Part shown: positions 4,878 through 39,178 of the stretch, one piece after another
Layout of the letters: each line of letters starts with the position of its first letter
How positions within the stretch are numbered: the first letter of the stretch is position 1
NCBI GenBank assembly: GCA_028708605.1
Contig: JAQVYS010000004.1
Location: forward strand, 1 to 63,405
Direction: 5' to 3'
From: Bacillota bacterium
GTDB taxonomy: Bacteria; Bacillota; DTU065
Length of the DNA stretch: 63,405 nucleotides
Translations under genes and position numbers: made by a program
The notes under the pieces: generated by a model
Database searches by the model: none
Told to the model about the DNA's origin: nothing
Seen by the model: only the letters and a program-made list of their open reading frames with translations

Positions 4878-5787
4878 ATAGTTCTTTTAGACCTTCAAGA
4901 AGCCTATAGAGATCACTAGGAAGCTTAGCCTTTAGCTTTAGAATGGAACCGGTTTTCGGATGAAAAAACTCTAAATAAGACGCGTGCAAGAAAATGCGTT
5001 CAAATCCGTTTGTTGCTTCGCCATAGAAATCGTCTCCGGCAATAGGGTGGCCACTAGCACTCAAATGTACCCGGATTTGGTGTGTCCTCCCGCTTTCAAG
5101 ACTAAGCTTAACTAAAGTAAAATCAGCGTAACGTTTTATTACTTGATATCTTGTAATAGCAGTCTTCCCTTGAGGACCTACTGTTCGTTTTATGCCTTCT
5201 TTAGGTTCTACAATATTAAAATCGATAACCCCATTATCTGAAGAAAAATTACCGTGAGTTAGGGCAAGATAAACTTTTTTCATTTGACCTACCTCTTCTG
5301 AAAGAATTGAAGCAGCTAGAGGATTTTTGGCAACAAGAACAAGGCCTGATGTGCCTTTGTCCAAACGGTTAATTAAGTAACTACTTGGAACTTCTCCTTT
5401 TTCTGCCAAATAGCCTGCAATATAGTTTGCAAGAGTTCCTGATATGTATTGGTGCCTTGGATGCATGATCTGACCGGAAGACTTATTAATAACTAAAATT
5501 TCGTCATCTTCATAGACAATCTTTAACGAAGAAACCTCTGGGAATACCTTACTTTGCTGTTCTAAGTACAGCTCTACGATGTCCCAAGCATTAAGTTGTT
5601 TGGTAAAATAAACATTTTCTTTATTCACCTGTAAAACACCATCATTTTTTATGTTTCTAATTAGACCAGTAGAAAAATGATAGTGCCTTTTTAAAACATC
5701 CCTTACTTTCCAACCGGTCTCATTTGGCATAATAACAGCACGAAAGAAAGGTTTTCTATCTTCTATCATCAACATCACTCTTTCCAA
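4876..5787 (-). CDS. RluA-family pseudouridine synthase (RluD-like, with S4-like N-terminus)
   Basis: 303 aa with motifs HRLDKGTSGLVLVAK-like (NRLDKGTSGLVLVAKN) and GRTHQIRVHL. Confidence 0.8.
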   Translation of the reverse strand: MERVMLMIEDRKPFFRAVIMPNETGWKVRDVLKRHYHFSTGLIRNIKNDGVLQVNKENVYFTKQLNAWDIVELYLEQQSKVFPEVSSLKIVYEDDEILVINKSSGQIMHPRHQYISGTLANYIAGYLAEKGEVPSSYLINRLDKGTSGLVLVAKNPLAASILSEEVGQMKKVYLALTHGNFSSDNGVIDFNIVEPKEGIKRTVGPQGKTAITRYQVIKRYADFTLVKLSLESGRTHQIRVHLSASGHPIAGDDFYGEATNGFERIFLHASYLEFFHPKTGSILKLKAKLPSDLYRLLEGLKEL

Positions 5788-10482: not shown

Positions 10483-11760
10483 TTGAAAAGGAATATATGT
10501 CTAAGTCTGTTTTTAATTGTAGTTTTGTCTTTAACAGGTTTTGCCAAACCACTTGAATTATGGGTTGTAGGATGGTCTAATGAAATGGCTCGGATTGCTG
10601 AAGATCTGATCGCTACCGAGTACACACCTAAAACAGGTGTTGAGGTCAATATAACCCCTATTGGCTGGGGTGACGGCGACAAAATTACTCTTGCAATTAT
10701 ATCTAATGATGCTCCTGACATTGTTACCGGTGGCGTAGAACTTGGTATTAGAGGCGCAGTCATCGATCTTAGAAAAACCTTTGGCAATGAATTTGAAGAA
10801 TTAGAAGCATCACTTTTTCCTGCAATTACAAAGCAAACACATTTCGAAGGTACTAGATTTGCAATCCCTCAGAATATCAGCGTTATGAACGCTGCATACC
10901 GTACTGACATTTTAGCAGATATGGGTATGGAAATCCCAGTTACTTGGGATGATGTTCGTCAAATGAGGCCAAAACTTAATGCCAACGGTAGTGAAATGGC
11001 CTTCTTCTATGGTAGCCCTGACTACGATGCGCTTTGGGGAGCTTATACCTTAATTACCCAACATGGTGGTAACTTTTTTAAAACCGATGGATTTACATCC
11101 GCTATGGATCAGCCAGAATCCATTAGAGGTTTTACAGAGTATGTAGAACTCTATACAAAGCACAACATGCCACAATCTGTAACTGGCATCACCCAGTTTA
11201 GAAACGGTGAATTGACTATGATGATTGATGGCTACTGGATATATACAAATCTATTGCAAAGTGCCCCAGAGATCGCTGGCAAGTGGGAACCTGGATTGAT
11301 TCCAGGCACCAAAAGACCAGACGGTACAATAAACCACGGCACATTTACCGGTGGTTCTCATTGGGCTATCCCAACAACAACTAAGGACAAAGAGCAAGCA
11401 TGGAATTTCATGAAGTGGTTCTTATCGGACGACATCCAGAGAAGATACACCGACGCAGTTATCACAGGAATCCCTGGTTTTTTAATGGTTCCTACTTCAA
11501 TGGAAGCCCTTTACACGCTTGAAGGTTTACCAGAGAATATCGTAAAAGTTATTCATGCCCAAATCGACCAATCTATAGCTGTTCCATACGCTCCAACACA
11601 AGGTGTTCATTATCGTTTCATCAACTTTGCTATCCAATCCTGTCTACAACTAAACTCCGATCCTGAAACAGAAGCAATTAAATCTGCAGTTGAAATGAAC
11701 AAAGAAATGGATAGAAGAAAAATCGAGTACAAGCGTTTCTTGGATCAGTTACACAAATGA
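10483..11760 (+). CDS. ABC transporter solute-binding protein, family 1, orphan (SBP-C1, tandem paralogue 1 of 3)
   Basis: 425 aa. Long identical stretches with the next two ORFs (e.g. ITPIGWGDGDKITLAIISNDAPDIVTGGVELGIRGA, NISVMNAAYRTD, YTLITQHGGNFF). Has its own RBS (AAGGGGGG) and terminator. Confidence 0.85.
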   Translation: MKRNICLSLFLIVVLSLTGFAKPLELWVVGWSNEMARIAEDLIATEYTPKTGVEVNITPIGWGDGDKITLAIISNDAPDIVTGGVELGIRGAVIDLRKTFGNEFEELEASLFPAITKQTHFEGTRFAIPQNISVMNAAYRTDILADMGMEIPVTWDDVRQMRPKLNANGSEMAFFYGSPDYDALWGAYTLITQHGGNFFKTDGFTSAMDQPESIRGFTEYVELYTKHNMPQSVTGITQFRNGELTMMIDGYWIYTNLLQSAPEIAGKWEPGLIPGTKRPDGTINHGTFTGGSHWAIPTTTKDKEQAWNFMKWFLSDDIQRRYTDAVITGIPGFLMVPTSMEALYTLEGLPENIVKVIHAQIDQSIAVPYAPTQGVHYRFINFAIQSCLQLNSDPETEAIKSAVEMNKEMDRRKIEYKRFLDQLHK

Positions 11761-15367: not shown

Positions 15368-15727
15368 TGGTGGAGGCGGTGGGTGTCGAACCCACGTCCG
15401 AAAAGACGACCATAGTCCCGTCTACGAGCGTAGTCTGATTACTTAGTTTTCGCTTGAAAGAACGCCATCAGACAGGCTTCTTTCTCACTACACTTCTATA
15501 GTCTTTCGTTTTCGCCTAGAAGTAATGGCTAAACGGCAACCCGCTAATTTGATGCCCAAAAGATAGCCGCAGGTTTACTATCTAAGGACAGCTACTTTTA
15601 ATTAAGCAGCGTAAGCTAAATTATCGTTTGCGTTTATTATACGCTTCCGCCTTTTTATCGAGGTTTGCGGAGAACTCGGCTCGCTGTGACTAACATCATA
15701 ACTCCCCGTCGAAGCCAAATCGCCCCC
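15368..15727 (-). ncRNA. ssrA: tmRNA (SsrA)
   Basis: Minus strand starts GGGGGCGATTTGGCTTCGACGGGG and ends GGACGTGGGTTCGACACCCACCGCCTCCACCA. The acceptor stem GGGGGCG/CGCCTCC has G3:U. Tag ORF GCA AAC GAT AAT TTA GCT TAC GCT GCT TAA encodes ANDNLAYAA* (15631..15602). Confidence 0.95.
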
Positions 15728-26500: not shown

Positions 26501-26815
26501 GAGGCTACCCATTATTTGAGTAGCCGACCTCCCACACCACCGTGCTTACCGTTCGGTACACGGCGGTTCCCTTGTTTACGCTGTAACATACTGGTAATAA
26601 TCCGAAAAGTATAAGAAACCTAATTTTCGTACAACATCATTAGTTAACGTTTTATTTAGAATAGAGCTATTGGAGATTCTCCAGTAGCTCTTTCTTGTGT
26701 TCGCATTCATCCAGGCTTCCTCTGCGTGCATGCCATAGGTTTGCAACATCTGGAACTTTGTTTTGGTTCGCTTCCATTGTTTCCAGTAGACCATGCGAAT
26801 ACGTCTCCTTATCCA
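26497..26815 (-). mobile_element. group II intron, 3' segment (maturase C-terminus, domain V, domain VI); 3' boundary +/-15 nt
   Basis: Minus strand encodes WIRRRIRMVYWKQWKRTKTKFQMLQTYG...ANTRKSYWRISNS (maturase X / C-terminal block; stop at 26576). Next comes a DV-like helix at 26567-26536: ACCGCCGTG-TACC-GAAC-GGTA-[AG bulge]-CACGGTGGT. A terminal hairpin follows: GTGGGAGG...CCTCCTAC. Confidence 0.8.
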
Positions 26816-26866
26816 TTTGGGAGCGTTTTGTCAAGACCGTATTTGTGTCACTTGCAAAATAACACA

Positions 26867-27028
26867 TCACGCACTTTCCTTGTGAATATCCTCTTTTACC
26901 GCCCTGAGTGCCTTTTCCTGCATACTCATACCCTCATCCCTAAAATTCATCACTATCTCATAATTTGTATTGCCTATGGTGGTTTCAAAGCTCCCACCGG
27001 CATTGTACTTTGTCTCTCTTTCTTCCAT
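26867..27028 (-). CDS. TnpW-like small transposon protein (53 aa; below the ORF-track cutoff)
   Basis: AGGGAGA RBS, then MEERETKYNAGGSFETTIGNTNYEIVMNFRDEGMSMQEKALRAVKEDIHKESA*. The IGxTxYxVxxxF...K..R pattern and the position after the relaxase match tnpW of Tn4451-type elements (recalled from memory). Confidence 0.5.
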   Translation of the reverse strand: MEERETKYNAGGSFETTIGNTNYEIVMNFRDEGMSMQEKALRAVKEDIHKESA

Positions 27029-27090
27029 GCTTCTCCCTTCACGCAAAAAGGACAGCTACAAACCACTGTCTGTAAACTGCCCTCTCGCTG

Positions 27091-28638
27091 TTATAATGAC
27101 CGTTCATTTTTCTTGTGCTTCGGCACTCTGTTTCTTTGCCTCTGCTCTGCTTCTCTCGTCAAGGCATACATCTTTCTGTTATGCTCTATAACCTCTGCGG
27201 ATGCAAGCTCCGTAACAACCTTTGCATAGCCTGGATTGCTCTCTTGCAATTTTGCTTCAAGCTGGGCTTTCTGCTCCGTCCACTTCTTCGGTGTAATCTT
27301 CTCTTCCGGTGCAAGCATTCTTTTCAAATCTGCCCGATAACTATCGTACATTTCAAGCTCCGTTTGATGGGCTTTATCATAATTACGCTTGGCAAATCCT
27401 TTCATAGAATTGCTCGTTTTATGATATTCCACATAAGGCTGTAACTCACTGTACGCATAAAGCAACTGCTCCAGTCTTGCTATCTGCTCCGCTATGCCCT
27501 GCCTTTCTTGTGCCAGTTTTTCATAAGCCGGCACACGCTGTTCCATAAATCCCTGCAACTGCTCAAAGCTCTCAATCTGATTTGAAACAACAAACTGCTC
27601 CATTCTGTCCTGCTCCTGCAATGCCTGCCTCTGGGAAATCTTTTTCAGATACTTGCTACCCACAACCGGAATATCCAGTCTGCCTTTTCTGCCGACAACT
27701 GCCCTTATCATATCAAGCACTTCATTGGCAGTATTGCGCACTGCTTCGACCGGCTTGGAATTAACAAGCTTCTGCAACTGTTCCTCTGCTTTTGCCACAA
27801 GCATTTTTGCAGTAAGAATCGCCTTATTCTGCTCCATAATTCTACGGTTGATATTTCCTCTCTCGGTCTGTATGCCTGCTCTCTCAAGCGCACTGGCTTT
27901 TTCTCCCAAATGTATCTGTGGGATAATATCAAGCCCCTGCGCCTCAAAGGAACGGTGTTCCCAAAAATTCTCCGTCAATCCGTTCTTCTCATTGATTGCA
28001 TTGATAGTGTCTGCCCAGTTCTTGCGCCACCTCTTTGCATTCTCCTTATTGTTCCATCCGGTCACATCCTGCGTGGTGCATTTATAGTTCCCCTTCTTGG
28101 TTCTAATCTTGTTCCCATCTGCATCCAGTATATAAATCTTTTTCTGCTTTTCTCCCCATGTTCCATCTTCCATAATCGGTCGCATGGTCATCATAATATG
28201 ACAATGCAAGTTCCTCTGATGCGTAACCGGATTTTCAGAGTCATGAATAGCAAACTGCACACACATTCCCTCATCCAAAAAATTACGCTTCACATAATCC
28301 CTCACTACCTCGGTGGCAAGCTCATAGCTCCATTCATTCGGAATAGAAATCTTGTATGACCTTGCAAGCTGTGCCTTGGAATTATTTTTCTCACGCATTT
28401 CCACTGAGTTCCACAATACAGATGGGTCTGCATATTCCTCCGGCGCATTCTCCGGTAGCATAACCTCACTATGCACCAAATCTTCACTATACTTGGGATA
28501 ATAATAAGTTCCGTCATATTCAGAGTACATGGTGGTACGGCTGATATATGCTGACCTGTCAACTGCGGATGAGCCACCACTGCACTTTGCGCCCCTGCCT
28601 ATGATAGCAATACGAGTACTTAGGCTTTTTACAGCCAT
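27091..28638 (-). CDS. MobA/MobL (MobQ-type) relaxase
   Basis: Track ORF extends to 28659, but ATG 28638 follows AAAGAGGTG. N-terminus has AVDRSAYISR (catalytic Tyr region) and HDSENPVTHQRNLHCHIMM (HxDxxxxH.H histidine triad). Long coiled-coil C-terminus. Confidence 0.8.
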   Translation of the reverse strand: MAVKSLSTRIAIIGRGAKCSGGSSAVDRSAYISRTTMYSEYDGTYYYPKYSEDLVHSEVMLPENAPEEYADPSVLWNSVEMREKNNSKAQLARSYKISIPNEWSYELATEVVRDYVKRNFLDEGMCVQFAIHDSENPVTHQRNLHCHIMMTMRPIMEDGTWGEKQKKIYILDADGNKIRTKKGNYKCTTQDVTGWNNKENAKRWRKNWADTINAINEKNGLTENFWEHRSFEAQGLDIIPQIHLGEKASALERAGIQTERGNINRRIMEQNKAILTAKMLVAKAEEQLQKLVNSKPVEAVRNTANEVLDMIRAVVGRKGRLDIPVVGSKYLKKISQRQALQEQDRMEQFVVSNQIESFEQLQGFMEQRVPAYEKLAQERQGIAEQIARLEQLLYAYSELQPYVEYHKTSNSMKGFAKRNYDKAHQTELEMYDSYRADLKRMLAPEEKITPKKWTEQKAQLEAKLQESNPGYAKVVTELASAEVIEHNRKMYALTREAEQRQRNRVPKHKKNERSL

Positions 28639-28659
28639 AGAAACACCTCTTTTCTGCAT

Positions 28660-28914
28660 GGACTATGGCTGACCGATACAGTGGACTTTGCGGTATCGGC
28701 TGACTTTGTGGGCAGTGCAGCTCCGCTCTTTGGAGCTTCACTGAACGCAAAGTATGCAAATGGGTAGGTGCGCCCTCTGCACCGAAGGGAAAACGCAGTG
28801 TTCCCTTTTGACTGCCCTCGGCAGGCAATGGCTGTCTGCAAGACCCCTCGGAGAGCGCACATACCATCGCAGATGGTATATCTGTGCGCAACGAAAAAAT
28901 TTCGTTGAATGGTT
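28660..28914 (-). promoter_or_regulatory. candidate oriT / mob promoter region (cluster of inverted repeats)
   Basis: Inverted repeats: CCGATAC(13)GTATCGG at 28673-28699, AGCTCC(7)GGAGCT at 28719-28737, and GCGCACATACCAT-cgcag-ATGGTATatctGTGCGC at 28855-28889. Non-coding and directly upstream of the relaxase. Confidence 0.45.
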
Positions 28915-29268
28915 TTAAGCACTTTCGCCCTTGCCGGCACCTTCATCATTAGCCACCTCACTTTCAGATTTTGCAAATGCACTGCCACTCTTTTCAGCAC
29001 TTTCCTTTTTCACAATTTCAATAATACGCTGGCACTGCTCTGACTTGATAGCGGATGCAATAATGCGGTTCAGCTCCAACTCGTCAAACTGGTAGCACTC
29101 GGGAAAGTATTTATGAATAATACCGCCCATCATGTACTTATGCTGATTTTCCTCTTTTCTCTTCTTTGCTCCCTCTTTCCTCTTAGCTTCTGCCAGTCTC
29201 GCCTTGGCTTGTGCCAACTGCTCCTCTGCTCTTAAAATTTCTGCTGATTTTTCGTTGTTCTTAATCAT
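28915..29268 (-). CDS. coiled-coil mobilisation accessory protein (DUF3847-like)
   Basis: Start taken at the Met preceded by AAGGAGA (MIKNNEKSAEILRAEEQLAQAKARLAEAKRKE...). Lys/Glu-rich helix followed by GGIIHKYFPE. This kind of protein commonly sits upstream of MobA/L relaxases. Confidence 0.5.
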   Translation of the reverse strand: MIKNNEKSAEILRAEEQLAQAKARLAEAKRKEGAKKRKEENQHKYMMGGIIHKYFPECYQFDELELNRIIASAIKSEQCQRIIEIVKKESAEKSGSAFAKSESEVANDEGAGKGESA

Positions 29269-29302
29269 GTTTTTCATTCTCCTTTTCTTCATTTTGGGTA
29301 AC

Positions 29303-29344
29303 AAAAAAGGCGGTCATGGTTTTGACTTTCCATGCCACCTTTTT
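29303..29344 (-). terminator. intrinsic terminator after the hydrolase cargo gene
   Basis: Minus strand reads GGTGGCATGG-aaagtcaaaa-CCATGACCGCC followed by TTTTTT. Confidence 0.6.
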
Positions 29345-29394
29345 GGTGTTCGATATTAAATTAAAGTGCGGTGAAACCTGAAATTTTCAAGTGC

Positions 29395-30390
29395 TTATAA
29401 TTTTTCAATATAAGGAATCAGATAATTATTTATAAGTTCCATTCTCGGTTTTGGATTATACACCAACGAACAAGTCATACAAATAACGGTATCAATCTCT
29501 GGTATAACCGTCACTAAGGAGCCACCTACACCATTCATACAATAAGAATCATACTTTCCTGTACTATATTCTTTTCGTATTATTTTTATTGTACTATTTT
29601 TCTTATAAATCCACCATAAATATCCGTAGCTTTCTTCTCGCTCCGTTAGCATCTCGCGAATATATTGCTCTGAAAGGATTCTTTTACCATTATATAAACC
29701 ATTATTTAACACTAACACGCCAATCTTTGCAAAGTCATCTGTTGTAAGCGAAAACCCCCATCCAGTCGTATAATATCCGCTTGGGTCTTTTACCCAACCA
29801 CGATTATCTCTCGCTTTATAAAATGCTTCTTGCGATGCTCTGTCATAAACATTCGCATTCGGTACATCCAAAATCCCCAATGGTTCAAATAAATTTTTTG
29901 TTGCAAACTCTTTCAAACTCATATTTGTAGCCTTTGCTAAAACATTCGATAATACTTGAATTCCAAGTGTTGAGTAGTGGAAGTTTTCTCCAATCTGTTC
30001 CTTTCCACCAACCTGCTCTAAAACCTTGCCACCCCAATCTTCGCTAGTACACACCTTAGTCCACGGTTCACTTTTGAACTTATACGGAACAGTCATTGTA
30101 AGGAAATTCTCAATCGTTACTTCTTTCAACTGTTCTTGATTTCTCTTTAACTTATACTCAGGGAAAAAATCAATTACTTTTTGATGTACACCCTCTAAAT
30201 ATCCTTTATCAATCGCAATCCCCACAAGTATTGCCACAACACTTTTCACTATTGAAAAGGTATGTACTGATTCATTCTCATGTGCACCTTTAAAATACTC
30301 TTCAATGACCTTTTCACCATTTTTATATGCGATAATACCAAGTGTATTCGCATATTCTTTTCCTACAACTTCTCTTATTTTTTCCATCAT
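29395..30390 (-). CDS. beta-lactamase-family serine hydrolase (class C / PBP-like fold), cargo gene
   Basis: 331 aa: SxxK in HTFSIVKSV, a Y-S-T (YxN-like) motif in HYSTLGIQVLSN, and C-terminal NGVGGSLVTVIPE. Much more A+T-rich than the neighbouring element genes. Confidence 0.7.
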   Translation of the reverse strand: MMEKIREVVGKEYANTLGIIAYKNGEKVIEEYFKGAHENESVHTFSIVKSVVAILVGIAIDKGYLEGVHQKVIDFFPEYKLKRNQEQLKEVTIENFLTMTVPYKFKSEPWTKVCTSEDWGGKVLEQVGGKEQIGENFHYSTLGIQVLSNVLAKATNMSLKEFATKNLFEPLGILDVPNANVYDRASQEAFYKARDNRGWVKDPSGYYTTGWGFSLTTDDFAKIGVLVLNNGLYNGKRILSEQYIREMLTEREESYGYLWWIYKKNSTIKIIRKEYSTGKYDSYCMNGVGGSLVTVIPEIDTVICMTCSLVYNPKPRMELINNYLIPYIEKL

Positions 30391-30482
30391 CTTACACCTC
30401 GTATATTCTTAAGATTTGGACGTCCATATAAAAGCCTAATTTAATTAGAAATTTATTTCAATAGTTTTTTATAAGTTTTTAT

Positions 30483-30517
30483 AAAAAAAGATATCTAAGT
30501 TAATAGACATCTTTTTT
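30483..30517 (-). terminator. bidirectional hairpin separating the small ORF from the cargo module
   Basis: AAAAAAAGATATCTA-agttaa-TAGACATCTTTTTT. Confidence 0.5.
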
Positions 30518-30589
30518 CACAACATAAAATTCAAATTTTCGCTCTCCTTGTAGCAAATCGATTATATCACAGAACATACATTTTCTCAA

Positions 30590-30871
30590 CTAACTATCCC
30601 TTGAATTGTATCGTGTCATTTGCTCTCTTTTATGCTCCCTGCATTCATCACTTAACCTTCTCGGCTTGCGATAACTAATGTGTGATTTTGGCATGGAATA
30701 TGTCTTATCAATATCAGTTTCACTAACAAGCCTATACACATCAGGGAACTCAATAACTAACGCATCAATTCGCCTCATAACAGCCTTATCTCTGGTGTAA
30801 ACAATGGCTGTCTGCTCCCCTGCATTGAAATTGATAACAGTTTCCTGCTCGTACTTGGATAAACTGCCCAT
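30590..30871 (-). CDS. hypothetical small protein of the IME (position equivalent to tnpV)
   Basis: 93 aa with a good RBS (AAAGGAGTG). No motif recognised. Confidence 0.45.
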   Translation of the reverse strand: MGSLSKYEQETVINFNAGEQTAIVYTRDKAVMRRIDALVIEFPDVYRLVSETDIDKTYSMPKSHISYRKPRRLSDECREHKREQMTRYNSRDS

Positions 30872-30961
30872 GAAATCACTCCTTTCTACTAGGCTCGTAC
30901 TTTTTACGACTCTTGACTCGTACTTTTGACGGGCAAATAATAAAGCCTGCCTACGGCAGGC

Positions 30962-31106
30962 GGATAGGATGGGATAGGATAAGATAGAGATGGTATATCT
31001 CTTTTTTATCTTTTTATTTTATTCTTTTCTTTGGTTCTTTCTTTTCTGCTTTTCTTTTTCTCTTTTTTCTCTAGGAAGAGAAAGAGAAGGAAGGGGAAGG
31101 GAAGGT
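30962..31106. repeat. GATAG pentamer-rich block plus a ~75-nt polypyrimidine tract plus a complementary polypurine block
   Basis: ggataggatgggataggataagatagagatgg, then tctcttttttatctttttattttattcttttctttggttctttcttttctgcttttctttttctcttttttctct, then aggaagagaaagagaaggaaggggaagggaagg. Confidence 0.7.
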
Positions 31107-31296
31107 TACACCGGTCATACCAACAGAAAAGACATCCGCAACACACAGTTCCAACTGTCCGTTTTGAATGCCCTTTTTTGCTGATTTCATACGATAACTA
31201 CCGCACCAAATCATTCCCCTATTCTCTTGATGATAATTTCCCGGGCTGCCCTATTTCAGCTCCCATCCATACAATAATTATCGTGTAGCATTTAAG

Positions 31297-33324
31297 CTAT
31301 GACACTTTTCTCTTTGCTCTGCGCTTTGCTTTCTCACGCTCACTTGCCACTTGCTTTTTATGCTCAATTCTTCGGTCATATTCCGTCAATAGTTCCACTG
31401 CCCGACTGTCCCCCTGCTCTGCCAGTGCCTTTGTAGCCTTATATTTCTCCTGCTCCCTGCGATAACGATCCTTGAAGTATGCCTTGCTCTGCTCCCGCTT
31501 TTTCTCTTCATTCCTACAATACTCTTCATATTCTGCAATCGCTTTAGGGTCACCGGCTTCTGCATCTGCCTTAAGCTGTGCCAGTCTCTTGGCTTTATTT
31601 TCCTTGTACCGTTTCACGGTTTCTGCCCTTTTTTCTGCTCTTATTCTGTCCTTTTCCGCTTTCTTAACAGCCTGCTCCTTTGCTTCTGCTTTCAGCTCTG
31701 CTGTGCTGTATGGCGGTATAAATTGCCCGATAAAATTAAAATAAATCTCAATCTTCTGCTTTCGCCCGAACCCTCTCACACCATTTGACTCATGGACTAC
31801 AATTTTATCAATAAACTCATGTATCATGGTCGGTGTGAGTTCCTCAAAATCTGCATATTTCTTTGCTAATGCAATAAAGGAGTCCATGGCACTCTTCGGT
31901 GTCTGTTCCTCTTCATCCGGCACAAGTTCCTCTACCATTGCTTCCAGTTCTCCGTACTCGTCCTCATACTGGTTCATAAGTCGCTGATACTGTCTGTCCG
32001 ATATTTTTTCCAGTGCATAGGTTTCATACAGCTTGCCTATCAAAATATCAAGCTCCTTCATCCTTGCCTCTGCATTTGCGATAACTTCCGCATTTTTGGA
32101 AGTATCAACTTCCTGCCTTACTGCTAACTCGGCAAGTATCTGTTCCCTAAATTCTTTCTCGTTAGTTATCGTGTATTTACTGACTCTTTGAATGGATTTT
32201 TTTATCAGTTCCAATATGTCCGAACGCTTGATAAAGTGCATGGTGCAATCACTGGTAATCTGCCGATATTGGCTACAACAATAGGCTTGGTCGCTTTCAT
32301 ATCTTTCTCTGGTGCCGGAATTATAATTTCTTCTGATGAGCTTTGCTCCACAATCCGCACAATAGAGAAGTCCGGTAAGATTGAGTGGGTCTGCGCTGTA
32401 TGGTGTCTTTTTCCGGTATGCCTTTACCTTGTTGGCAATTTTCCATGTTTCCTCGTCAACAATTGCCTCATGCGTATTCTTGAAAATAATCTTGTCCTCA
32501 TCCGCAACTTTAACACGCTTCTTCGACTTGTAGGATAATCCCTTGGACTTTTTCAAAACTGTATGTCCTAAATACTCCTGCCGATGAATGATATATCCCA
32601 ATGTTGTGGAGTTCCATCTGTAAGGGTCATCCATTGGCTTGTGCCTGCAATCTTCGGGATAATGCAGTCTGTTGTATTCTGTCGGGCACAAGACCTTTTC
32701 CTCACTGAAAATCTTAGCAATCTCTGCATAGGAATATCCCTTAACCACCATATCAAAAATTCGCCTTACCACCTTTGCTGACTCTTCATCCACATAAAGG
32801 GTCTGCTTATCATCCGGCTTACGATAATAACCGTATGGAATTGCACCACTGCACCTAAGACCGCTCTCCATCCGGCTTGCAAATACTGCATTTATTTTTC
32901 TACTGGCATCTCTTGCATACCACTCATTCATAATGTTCAGAAATGGAGTGAAATCACTGTCCGTCTGATTGGCACTATCAATGTTGTTATTGATAGCAAT
33001 GAAACGCACTCCCTTTTCCACGAACATAATCTCTGTATAGTAACCGACTTTCAGATAATCTCGTCCAAAACGGCTCATGTCCTTTACAATGATTGTCGAT
33101 ATATTTCCTTCCATAACCTCTTCAATCATTGCCTTAAAGCCTTTTCTTTCAAAGGTTGTACCGCTGATACCGTCATCCGTAAAGTGTCGGAAATTGTCAA
33201 ATCCATGCTTCTTAGCGTAATCTTCCAAAAGTCGCTTTTGGTTTGTAATACTGTTGCTTTCGCCCTGCAATTCGTCATCTCTGGAGAGGCGCTCATACAG
33301 GGCTGTGTACTGATGTTTACTCAT
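31297..33324 (-). CDS. large serine recombinase (TnpX-like)
   Basis: Start at ATG 33324, 6 nt after GGAGG. MSKHQYTALYERLSRDDELQGESNSITNQK... (catalytic Ser in YERLSRDD), DMSRFGRDY, a recombinase plus zinc-ribbon region, and a long Lys/Glu-rich C-terminal tail. Confidence 0.9.
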   Translation of the reverse strand: MSKHQYTALYERLSRDDELQGESNSITNQKRLLEDYAKKHGFDNFRHFTDDGISGTTFERKGFKAMIEEVMEGNISTIIVKDMSRFGRDYLKVGYYTEIMFVEKGVRFIAINNNIDSANQTDSDFTPFLNIMNEWYARDASRKINAVFASRMESGLRCSGAIPYGYYRKPDDKQTLYVDEESAKVVRRIFDMVVKGYSYAEIAKIFSEEKVLCPTEYNRLHYPEDCRHKPMDDPYRWNSTTLGYIIHRQEYLGHTVLKKSKGLSYKSKKRVKVADEDKIIFKNTHEAIVDEETWKIANKVKAYRKKTPYSADPLNLTGLLYCADCGAKLIRRNYNSGTRERYESDQAYCCSQYRQITSDCTMHFIKRSDILELIKKSIQRVSKYTITNEKEFREQILAELAVRQEVDTSKNAEVIANAEARMKELDILIGKLYETYALEKISDRQYQRLMNQYEDEYGELEAMVEELVPDEEEQTPKSAMDSFIALAKKYADFEELTPTMIHEFIDKIVVHESNGVRGFGRKQKIEIYFNFIGQFIPPYSTAELKAEAKEQAVKKAEKDRIRAEKRAETVKRYKENKAKRLAQLKADAEAGDPKAIAEYEEYCRNEEKKREQSKAYFKDRYRREQEKYKATKALAEQGDSRAVELLTEYDRRIEHKKQVASEREKAKRRAKRKVS

Positions 33325-33382
33325 GTTTTGCCTCCATTTTTTCAAAATGACTATTTTACTGTCCTATTCAAATTTAACCGTT

Positions 33383-34232
33383 CGTCTGTTTCTTTTAGTA
33401 ATGACTTTATATCCGCTATCTTGAAGTAGTTTACCCACCCCATAATATAACGTCTGAGTCTCAGTATTCTCTCTTTATTGCTCATTCCGTTACTCCTAAA
33501 AGTAAGGTCCTTGATTTTGCTTCTCATTTTAGCAGTTGATTTAGGATGTATCCTAACTCGTGTTGCACCTTTTCTCTTGAGCAATTGCTTGTTGCACTAC
33601 TCTGTCTACCACTGTAGGTATTCCTAACTTCCTCTTTTTCCCGTTTTCTTTGGGTATCTCTGTCCGTCTAACAGGATTAGGTTTCTACTTACCGTTCAAA
33701 ATACTTTCTTTAATACTTTTAAGATTCTTTTCGAGATACTTTCTGAGTTCATCGACTCCCATTCCGTCTACGCCTGGTGCTCCTTTGTTGGATTTCACCT
33801 TATGGAAGGCTTGATTGAAATTCTGGATGTCTATGACTTTCTCAAGTAGGTTCTCGGTTAGCCCCTCCTCGATTAACTCGAGTACTATGGCACCTGCTGA
33901 CTTCTCATGGCAAATCTTGTTTCAACCGTAGCTCGAAATATATCTCCTCGCGTCCATGAGACCTCCCATGGTAAGACGATTCACTTTCACCCCATGTACC
34001 CACATCATCTACATTCGTATGTCCGTGTAGTTAATTGGACTTCGTTTTGTTTAGCAAACTCATCCCATATCCACTGCCTAATGATGTTCGTGTTCCTTGG
34101 GTCAGGGTTTTACCTCCAACTTCCTTCAGATTCCACCTCGCAATAATCACCCTTGCTCTTGGCTAATGGTTGGTAACTACAAACCCCCATAGTGGACTTT
34201 CACCACCTAGTTAATCGACATGCATGGCGCAC
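33383..34232 (-). mobile_element. group II intron, 5' segment (5' GUGCGCC end, domains I-IV, decayed RT ORF)
   Basis: Minus strand begins GTGCGCCATGCATG at 34232. The RT ORF reads ...NFNQAFHKVKSNKGAPGVDGM...ILNGK*KPNPVRRTEIPKENGKKRKLGIPTVVDRVVQQAIAQ, then jumps directly to ...RVRIHPKSTAKMRSKIKDLTFRSNG...GWVNYFKIADIKSLLKETDE. So there is an in-frame TAG and no YADD palm region. Confidence 0.8.
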
Positions 34233-34233
34233 T

Positions 34234-34263
34234 AAAAAAAAGCCCCGAGATAATTCTCGGGGC
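34234..34263 (-). terminator. intrinsic terminator of the GH18-like gene (group II intron homing site)
   Basis: Minus strand reads GCCCCGAGA-atta-TCTCGGGGC plus TTTTTTTT, then A, then the intron 5' GTGCGCC. Confidence 0.85.
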
Positions 34264-34281
34264 TTTTCAAAAGCACCAAAT

Positions 34282-35205
34282 CTATAGACAGTCCCAAATA
34301 CTCCTATCTTCCTGGCCTAAACGCCAAAAGGCGATTCCAGCAAGTCCTTCTGCGATCCTAATTTTCTTTAGCAAGGTGTCTTTGTTCTCAAAATAGATCT
34401 GCTCGATCGAGCCATCTGCAAATTCTACCTTAATATACATACAACCAGATTCGTGAAGCACTGGGCTTTCCTGCCACTTGTAAGCAAACTCCATTGACTC
34501 ATCATAAGTTACCCCTCTACCTATAGAGTGAACTCCAAATGGGTCAGTGACCCAGTGACGCCCATATAGAGGAAGACCTAAAACAATCTTCTGGCTAGGC
34601 ACAATGCTAGTAGCATATTTCTTTACATCCTCAAGCCAGAAATTTGGTGAAACCGGTCCAGGAGGGCTATTTGTATGAGAGTAATCATAGCCCATTAAAA
34701 CAAGATAATCGATTACAGGTCCTAGAGCCCTGTAATCAAAGGGGTAACCCCACGTATGCTGGGGCGTCGGATCCTGATCTAGGGCAATAACATCAACAGA
34801 GATCTCTCTGTCATTTTCGTGGAGCATTTCAGCTAGAAGGCAAATAAACTCGCTGAACTCATTTCGATAATCACCAAATGGCCCTTCAAAATCTACATTA
34901 AGCCCAGGATAATTGTCTTTTAAGACTTTTGCAGTCAAAATCTCTGCAGTCTTTTTTCTGCTAGCATGCGTTTTTAGTAGCCTAGCTGCAATCCCTGCAT
35001 CAAACCCCTTGTTTGCTACTAAAGGAAATACCTTAAAACCCATTTCCAGCATTTTATCAACGTTTGGATCTTTTGTTTCTATGAGGCTAAAGTCTCCATC
35101 TAAAGTAAGGATTGTCGGGCTCACCCTATCAAGGCACTTTCTGGCAATCTCTAAAGAACCAAAACTACTCTGATTGTTCGGCACCATCCAAGGTAGAATC
35201 AGCAT
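34282..35205 (-). CDS. glycoside hydrolase family 18-like protein (YaaH/YdhD-type), no signal peptide
   Basis: 307 aa. YPGLNVDFEG resembles the GH18 DxxDxDxE catalytic strip. Overlaps the upstream ORF by 41 nt. Confidence 0.5.
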   Translation of the reverse strand: MLILPWMVPNNQSSFGSLEIARKCLDRVSPTILTLDGDFSLIETKDPNVDKMLEMGFKVFPLVANKGFDAGIAARLLKTHASRKKTAEILTAKVLKDNYPGLNVDFEGPFGDYRNEFSEFICLLAEMLHENDREISVDVIALDQDPTPQHTWGYPFDYRALGPVIDYLVLMGYDYSHTNSPPGPVSPNFWLEDVKKYATSIVPSQKIVLGLPLYGRHWVTDPFGVHSIGRGVTYDESMEFAYKWQESPVLHESGCMYIKVEFADGSIEQIYFENKDTLLKKIRIAEGLAGIAFWRLGQEDRSIWDCL

Positions 35206-39048: not shown

Positions 39049-39084
39049 ATAAGTTGGGTAGATGAACAGACTTAGAGTGCCGCT

Positions 39085-39154
39085 CCCTCATAGTCAGATA
39101 GTTAACGGCTATCTGGTAGATACTCTCATGCCATATTCCTGAGATTATACGAGG
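39085..39154 (-). promoter_or_regulatory. purine riboswitch aptamer, guanine class
   Basis: Minus strand reads CCTCGTATAATCTCAGGAATATGGCATGAGAGTATCTACCAGATAGCCGTTAACTATCTGACTATGAGG. P1 is CCTCGTA/TATGAGG. The conserved UAUAAU, AUAUGG, UCUACC and CCGUUAA elements are present. J3/1 is GACUAUG (C at the specificity position, hence guanine-type). Confidence 0.9.
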
Positions 39155-39178
39155 AAATCTCATAACCACTTTACGTTT

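Follow-up and report, generated by a model that had tools for sequence, protein, structure and literature searches.

How does a recombinase gene that starts only 56 nt inside one end of a mobile element obtain a promoter, and does the supply differ between the integrated and the excised state? The question is raised by a 6.6-kb integrative mobilizable element (IME) of the Tn4451 superfamily, which occupies positions 26816–33382 (minus strand) of the window, the whole stretch of 63,405 nt that was analysed, and lies within the maturase region of a group II intron. Judged from the DNA of the two ends, the recombinase gene very probably gains a full sigma-A/sigma-70 promoter only in the excised circle, where a -35 hexamer from one end and a -10 hexamer from the other would be brought together.

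The element, its ends and its genes

The junctions and the two parts of the interrupted intron are placed as follows.

26816–26817, minus strand: AA crossover dinucleotide of the right junction (attR), where identity among independent insertions stops
33381–33382, minus strand: AA crossover dinucleotide of the left junction (attL); the window and a second locus (L004) both carry AACGGTTAAATT and diverge immediately upstream
33383–34147, minus strand: group II intron sequence upstream of the insertion (RNA domains D1–D4 and the start of the maturase frame), with Rfam RF02001 at 33976–34147 and RF01998 at 33861–33922; the open reading frame is restored on deletion of the element
26576–26815, minus strand: downstream part of the interrupted maturase frame (WIRRRIRMVYWKQWK...), read directly and from restoration of the frame

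The minus strand of the distal end is ...ACGGTC TTGACA AAACGCTCCCA AA|TGGATAAGG, and that of the proximal end ...GAAACAGACG AA CGGT TAAATT TGAATAGGACAGTAAAATAGTCATTTTGAAAAAATGGAGGCAAAAC ATG. Both boundaries follow from separate insertions that have identical ends and from the restored maturase frame, and these two lines uphold the ends called in the initial annotation. Locus L004 has the identical recombinase end in another target (...GATCCTAA|CGGTTAAATT), and identity begins at the AA. Ten loci (L008–L017) share the window's distal end exactly (...CTTGACAAAACGCTCCCA|AA) and continue into several differing target sequences. In silico removal of 26818–33382 yields an uninterrupted group II intron maturase frame, ...LLKETDEWIRRRIRMVYWKQWK (...LLKETDE|WIRRRIRMVYWKQWK). 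The AA at the crossover is the sole sequence that attL and attR have in common, as predicted for a serine recombinase with a 2-bp staggered cut: the dinucleotide is identical at both ends, and the empty site is restored exactly, without target duplication. Because nothing but AA is shared, the sequence of the joint and its 17-nt spacer are unambiguous.

The window copy occupies a secondary site in the intron, with the target CG-AA-TGG; secondary targets have CG/CT-AA-TGG in common, among them those of the window, L012 and L013. Identical ends lie within T4SS-DNA_transf genes at L004, L008–L011 and L014–L018. Two target sites thus hold identical copies, which implies mobility. A phage collection gave no match to the element. 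The interrupted intron itself looks degenerate: the open reading frame left after in silico removal of the element has only 151 aa, in the maturase region, and there is no space for a reverse-transcriptase domain between D1–D4 (33861–34147) and the maturase part. No Rfam match to its domains D5–D6 was reported.

The genes of the element, all on the minus strand, include the following.

31297–33324, minus strand: large serine recombinase gene, TnpX-like, 675 aa (Pfam Resolvase, Recombinase, Zn_ribbon_recom and DUF4368; aligned over 576 aa with the TnpX of L098, a Tn4451-type element, at 44% identity)
33324–33322, minus strand: ATG start of the recombinase gene, read directly
33331–33335, minus strand: Shine-Dalgarno sequence GGAGG, 6 nt ahead of the ATG, read directly
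29395–30390, minus strand: cargo gene for a beta-lactamase-fold serine hydrolase of 331 aa (PF00144, E = 8.5e-22)
27091–28659, minus strand: MobA/MobL (MOBQ-type) relaxase gene (PF03389, E = 1.6e-69; NCBIfam MobQ, E = 2e-51, at 174.5 bits below the 200-bit cutoff)
26867–27028, minus strand: small terminal open reading frame (ORF) of 53 aa, weakly TnpW-like (a 17-residue match to the TnpW of a second known element, L001, E = 6e-4)

By an exact-protein look-up, seven further contigs encode the identical recombinase, which is inserted at two distinct sites; samples with this protein are ERZ27247361, SRR11702770, SRR22315505, SRR11702755, SRR22315502 and SRR11702754. A large protein search matched unnamed relatives only, and nothing called TnpX. 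The relaxase makes the element mobilizable. Besides the genes for recombinase, relaxase and cargo, the element holds three small ORFs. The 53-aa terminal ORF has no Pfam (E up to 1) or NCBIfam match and no alignment to the TnpW of L098 (PF14202); a protein identical to it is indexed in 198 blocks of the contig collection. TnpV (PF14198) and TnpY (AAA_25 ATPase) found no match among the six main minus-strand ORFs plus 28559–28891. The cargo protein has a weak, sub-threshold NCBIfam match to 3-succinylated cholic acid synthase (99 bits, where the cutoff is 800), and elements with the identical right end hold other cargo at that position, among it acetyltransferases, a methyltransferase, an isochorismatase and Arr-ms.

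A predicted promoter divided between the two ends

Four short segments, two at each end, would make up the predicted promoter.

26829–26834, minus strand: -35 hexamer TTGACA of the distal (right) end; the plus strand reads TGTCAA, and CTTGACA is invariant in the right ends of relatives
26818–26828, minus strand: AAACGCTCCCA, the 11 nt that separate the -35 from the crossover in the right end and open the spacer of the joint; in relatives the sequence varies and the length is fixed at 10 or 11 nt
33377–33380, minus strand: CGGT, the first 4 nt of the left end and the last part of the joint spacer, read directly
33371–33376, minus strand: -10 hexamer TAAATT (plus strand AATTTA), 4/6 to TATAAT, with T, A and the final T present

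The initial annotation had read TTGACA at 26834–26829 and TAAATT at 33376–33371, with 47 nt from the end of TAAATT to the A of the recombinase ATG at 33324, and had joined the two ends through one AA core into TTGACA-17 nt-TAAATT. Direct reading of the sequence bears out every coordinate, and the joint as well. The predicted circle joint is TTGACA-AAACGCTCCCAAACGGT-TAAATT; it reads ...CTTGACAAAACGCTCCCAAACGGTTAAATTTG, and the 30-mer for it is GACAAAACGCTCCCAAACGGTTAAATTTGA. By sigma-A/sigma-70 standards the joint has a -35 with 6/6 matches, a 17-nt spacer and a moderate -10 (4/6, without an extended TG).

The integrated state looks quite different. At a distance of 17 nt upstream of TAAATT stands ACTAAA, which matches the -35 consensus at 2/6 positions, as had been annotated; spacers of 16 and 18 nt give 3/6 and 2/6. 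A consensus scan of 33200–34300 finds no -35 at the integrated junction, and no sigma-70-like minus-strand site from the junction to the ATG or in the 500 nt upstream; the nearest minus-strand promoter-like site is at 33913–33884.

The sequence of events would then be the following. While integrated, the recombinase gene retains only the -10 box, 4 nt from the AA, and the -35 sits 11 nt in from the opposite end. A conservative crossover at the AA would produce a circle with the joint TTGACA-AAACGCTCCCAAACGGT-TAAATT and its optimal 17-nt spacer, and transcription would be expected to start ∼7 nt past TAAATT, giving a leader of ∼40 nt. High recombinase output from a circle that does not replicate would favour re-insertion; insertion would split the promoter again, lower expression and so stabilise the inserted state. 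This supposes that the circle forms in the host and that its joint is transcriptionally active. The joint was absent from genome_contigs, searched with an exact 38-mer, and from metagenome_contigs, searched with a 26-mer with one free base.

Conservation among relatives and the recombinase arms

A scan of one genome per species provided 80 loci with recombinases 44–98% identical to that of the window, and the right ends of these relatives were located through the continuation of the interrupted coupling-protein gene. In all of them, CTTGACA lies 10 or 11 nt from the AA core, with TTGACG in one lineage, and the bases in between vary. When 15 distinct right ends are aligned on the hexamer, C-T-T-G-A-C reaches 2.0 bits and the final A 1.6 bits; one other column is fully conserved, an A two bases past the hexamer, and there is less information elsewhere. 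When seven divergent right ends are aligned with MAFFT, CTTGACA is the sole invariant block, and mean column identity is 54%. In the left ends, TAnnnT begins 4 or 5 nt past the core in 30 of the 32 distinct sequences and is found almost nowhere else in them. It takes the forms TAAATT, TACATT, TACAAT and TAGATT, and a perfect TATAAT in L042, L053, L074, L087 and L088.

Both ends were recovered for 14 distinct elements, which have coupling-protein genes as their targets throughout, except the window, L098 and L001. The spacer predicted for the joint is 17 nt in 13 of the 14 and 18 nt in the remaining one. This constancy is reached in two registers: in the window, L018 and the Tn4451-type element, 11 nt separate the core from the -35 and 4 nt from the -10; in ten elements the distances are 10 nt and 5 nt. 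AGGACA occupies left-arm positions 16–21 in both registers, and the -10 shifts relative to it, offsetting the change in the right arm. Comparison of the aligned ends indicates that the 1-nt shift in one arm, matched in the other, is real compensation. The two registers may go back to a single evolutionary event, so that the covariation argument rests on few independent changes. A constant spacer could also arise trivially, by sliding of the crossover within one site; this was rejected, since the -10 moves against an AGGACA that stays fixed at positions 16–21.

The arms of the recombination site carry a motif of their own, which adjoins the promoter elements.

33359–33365, minus strand: arm motif AGGACAG, positions 16–22 from the core; an inverted repeat in both arms of relatives (AAGGACA/TGTCCTT)
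26834–26839, minus strand: right-arm counterpart CGGTCT (TGTCCT in relatives), overlapping the first T of the -35

The symmetric AAGGACA/AGGACAG motif is probably an arm determinant for recombinase binding. Could the conserved blocks be nothing else? Under this alternative, CTTGACA and GGTTA/TAnnnT would serve the recombinase as recognition determinants in the arms of the att site, and their likeness to a promoter would have no effect on transcription. TTGACA abuts and overlaps the symmetric motif (TGTCC-TTGACA against AAGGACA), the left arm of one subfamily (TGTTAAGGACA) is near the reverse complement of the right arm, and a GG at positions 2–3 from the core is common to both arms. Read outward from the core, AAGGACA is symmetric, and the symmetry takes in three letters of TTGACA (T, T and the final A). 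Half of the -35 is therefore symmetric between the arms, and part of its conservation could reflect recombinase binding. The remaining letters behave otherwise: G-A-C of TTGACA is invariant only in the right arm, with 0.4–0.6 bits at these positions in the left arm, and for T-A of the -10 it is the left arm alone that is invariant. The letters conserved in one arm alone are exactly those that complete both sigma-A hexamers. A purely recombinational role would also leave aside the 17-nt spacer, maintained by a compensating shift relative to the arm motif, and the identical layout of the Tn4451-type element, which belongs to the family with a published joint promoter. An exclusive role in recombination is quite unlikely on these grounds, and a role at the recombinase site can coexist with a role as promoter. 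For the joint promoter, the overlap of the -35 with the conserved arm motif, and hence of the two functions, makes autorepression plausible: recombinase bound to the joint may repress its own promoter.

An intact joint-like site was found once in a regular-expression scan of 177 loci, at 5290–5360 of L025, a Lachnospiraceae MAG contig. It reads CTTGACA-AACACACCCTAAAGGT-TACGTT-TGTGT-AGGACA, with a 16-nt spacer, and lies directly upstream of a related recombinase gene; further upstream are a MobA/MobL gene and a right-end-like sequence. A second right end is absent from the 11 kb downstream. A tandem array, a trapped circle and an assembly artefact are all possible origins of the site.

The left junctions of L018–L097 show where relatives insert. 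Most are at V-T-D-P-K|G codons (GAYCCNAA|RGG) of type IV coupling-protein genes, and the insertions in these genes are always co-oriented with the gene. Four loci (L009, L010, L014 and L016) are tandem accretions, in which a second element interrupts the same coupling-protein gene ∼0.4–0.5 kb downstream of the point where an element with the window's terminal ORF has its right end. The second element has a different recombinase, of 620 aa, and a different left end; the accretions lie at ∼3160–5700 in L009, L010 and L014 and at ∼2000–4450 in L016.

Other possible sources of transcription and known systems

The orientation of the insertions raises another explanation, in which the recombinase is expressed mainly by read-through from the interrupted co-oriented host gene, or from an internal promoter, and the joint promoter is minor. 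All insertions examined are co-oriented with the interrupted gene (the intron here, a coupling-protein gene elsewhere), no minus-strand terminator-like site was found in 34300–33200, and in ICEKp1 integrase genes are documented to draw on host promoters in a state-dependent way (PMC13023037). There is also a TAAAAT box 22 nt inside the left end. This box was rejected as a real -10, because only ACGGTT stands 17 nt upstream of it, in the integrated and the circular state alike. Read-through accounts for the integrated state, but not for the circle or for a new recipient cell, and it leaves the conservation of TTGACA at a fixed distance from the far end unaccounted for. As the main source it is very unlikely. 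It complements the joint promoter rather than excluding it: with no local promoter, a co-oriented insertion and no minus-strand terminator-like site upstream, read-through of the interrupted gene is the likely source of basal expression in the integrated state. Such a supply would parallel the state-dependent integrase promoters of ICEKp1 and ICEclc.

Alternatively, the terminal TTGACA, which points outward 13 nt from the element end, could act as some insertion sequences do and form hybrid promoters with host DNA for downstream genes. The hexamers 17 nt downstream across attR are poor (TAAGGA in the window, AGCATT in L008), and the preferred target AA(A/G)GGNAC has no TAnnnT, whereas the cognate left ends nearly always provide one; this function is highly improbable. 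Coincidence of both hexamers in AT-rich DNA deserves next to no credence: the window has 39% G+C and 37 TTGACA sites on both strands, against 31 expected at equal base frequencies, but a simulation of 2,000,000 joints of random window positions (TTGACA, 16–18 nt, TAnnnT at ≥4/6, split by the joint) gave 433 split promoters (2.2e-4; 7e-5 for exactly 17 nt), and the comparison across the family, in which the geometry recurs in 14 distinct elements, effectively refutes chance.

The joint promoter has a precedent. The circular intermediate of Tn4451/Tn4453 reportedly forms a promoter for tnpX, a result credited to Lyras and Rood (2000, Mol Microbiol 38:588); a literature search found no openly readable text with the Tn4451 joint sequence. 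A Tn4451-type element from Enterocloster, L098, was recovered with CatP as probe. By its gene set it is a canonical Tn4451/Tn4453-type element: tnpX (707 aa), tnpV (PF14198, E = 5.9e-41), catP, tnpY (AAA_25), tnpZ (Mob_Pre) and tnpW. Its ends read ...GTATC TTGACA AACTCGACCCC GA and GA GGGC TATACT TTAAT AGGACA, which gives TTGACA-11 nt-GA-4 nt-TATACT with a 17-nt spacer and AGGACA at positions 16–21. At 10640–10655 of L098, tnpW ends within the -35, its stop codon TGA being part of the hexamer (cTTGAca), so that coding sequence, promoter box and recombinase arm overlap.

The window element resembles Tn4451/Tn4453 in having a TnpX-clade large serine recombinase (44% identity), with its gene at one end, and a 2-bp crossover without target duplication. 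With L098 it shares the placement of the -35 at 11 nt and the -10 at 4 nt from the core, with a spacer of 17, although for the window element this is a likeness of sequence only. The initial annotation had invoked the logic of Tn4451/Tn4453, and the comparison supports it: the ends of L098 share the geometry, the recombinase is 44% identical to its TnpX and the layout is conserved in 14 distinct elements. The two differ in the core (AA in the window, GA in the Tn4451 type), the -10 (TAAATT against TATACT) and the relaxase (MobA/MobL, PF03389, against the Mob_Pre protein TnpZ, PF01076); the window element is without TnpV and TnpY, and its cargo is a beta-lactamase-fold gene instead of catP.

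A closer match in gene order is L001, the aac(6')-Im/aph(2'')-IIa element of Klebsiella and Citrobacter plasmids (NZ_CP070578.1). Both have a recombinase, a small ORF, cargo, a small ORF, a MobA/MobL relaxase and, before the end, TnpW in L001 and the weakly TnpW-like ORF in the window, and their DNA is ∼83% identical over 44% of the query. The recombinases are ∼41% identical (tblastn, residues 7–535), and 64% over the first ∼110 residues. The predicted joint of L001, with boundaries inferred by analogy and not from an empty site, is TTGACA-10 nt-GA-5 nt-TACACT; the spacer is again 17, whereas core and register differ from those of the window.

Promoters split between the ends of an element are also found among insertion sequences: in IS911, IS2, IS30 and others, circularisation alone brings together a -35 from one end and a -10 from the other to drive the transposase. 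Their transposases are of the DDE type, and their inverted repeats abut across a short spacer of variable length, in contrast with the serine recombinase and exact 2-bp crossover of the window element. Once excised, ICEclc (Pcirc) and ICEKp1 (P3'end) have their integrase genes transcribed across attP from the opposite end (PMC13023037). There, a complete promoter in the far end reads across the junction, whereas in the window element the promoter itself is split by the junction.

Insertion into coupling-protein genes has been described as well. Passages of Coluzzi et al. 2017 (PMC5357655) report that serine-integrase IMEs insert into traG/VirD4 coupling-protein genes of ICEs and already propose that such IMEs excise upon conjugation induction; a split promoter is not mentioned in these passages. 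Copies with identical ends and most relatives of the window element are of this kind, co-oriented at V-T-D-P-K|G, and the window copy differs by its position in the intron.

The mechanism would thus be the known circular-intermediate promoter of Tn4451, in a structurally different member of the superfamily, and no new mechanism is suggested by these sequences. What is added is the conservation of the layout throughout the family and the compensating spacing. The layout of the Tn4451 joint promoter extends to a large and diverse set of elements in gut Clostridia, with varied cargo that includes resistance genes. Sequence alone is enough to locate the precise ends of a serine-recombinase element and to read off how it is likely to be expressed, and the string CTTGACA, 10–11 nt, 2-bp core, 4–5 nt, TAnnnT, AGGACA provides a signature with which such elements can be delimited in genomes and metagenomes. 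A more speculative extension, which is doubtful as it stands, is that the split promoter is ancestral and near-universal in the TnpX clade (thousands of elements in gut Clostridia), that the -35 within the arm-binding motif would confer self-repression, and that the integrated gene would be fed by read-through of the ICE conjugation operon via the coupling-protein gene. If this were true, a two-state promoter switch would tie excision of the IME to induction of the ICE, and re-insertion to formation of the circle.

Two further features of the window are ordinary chromosomal ones, unrelated to the split promoter: a tmRNA gene at 15368–15727 (minus strand, 182.9 bits) and a purine riboswitch aptamer at 39071–39172 (minus strand, 81.3 bits).
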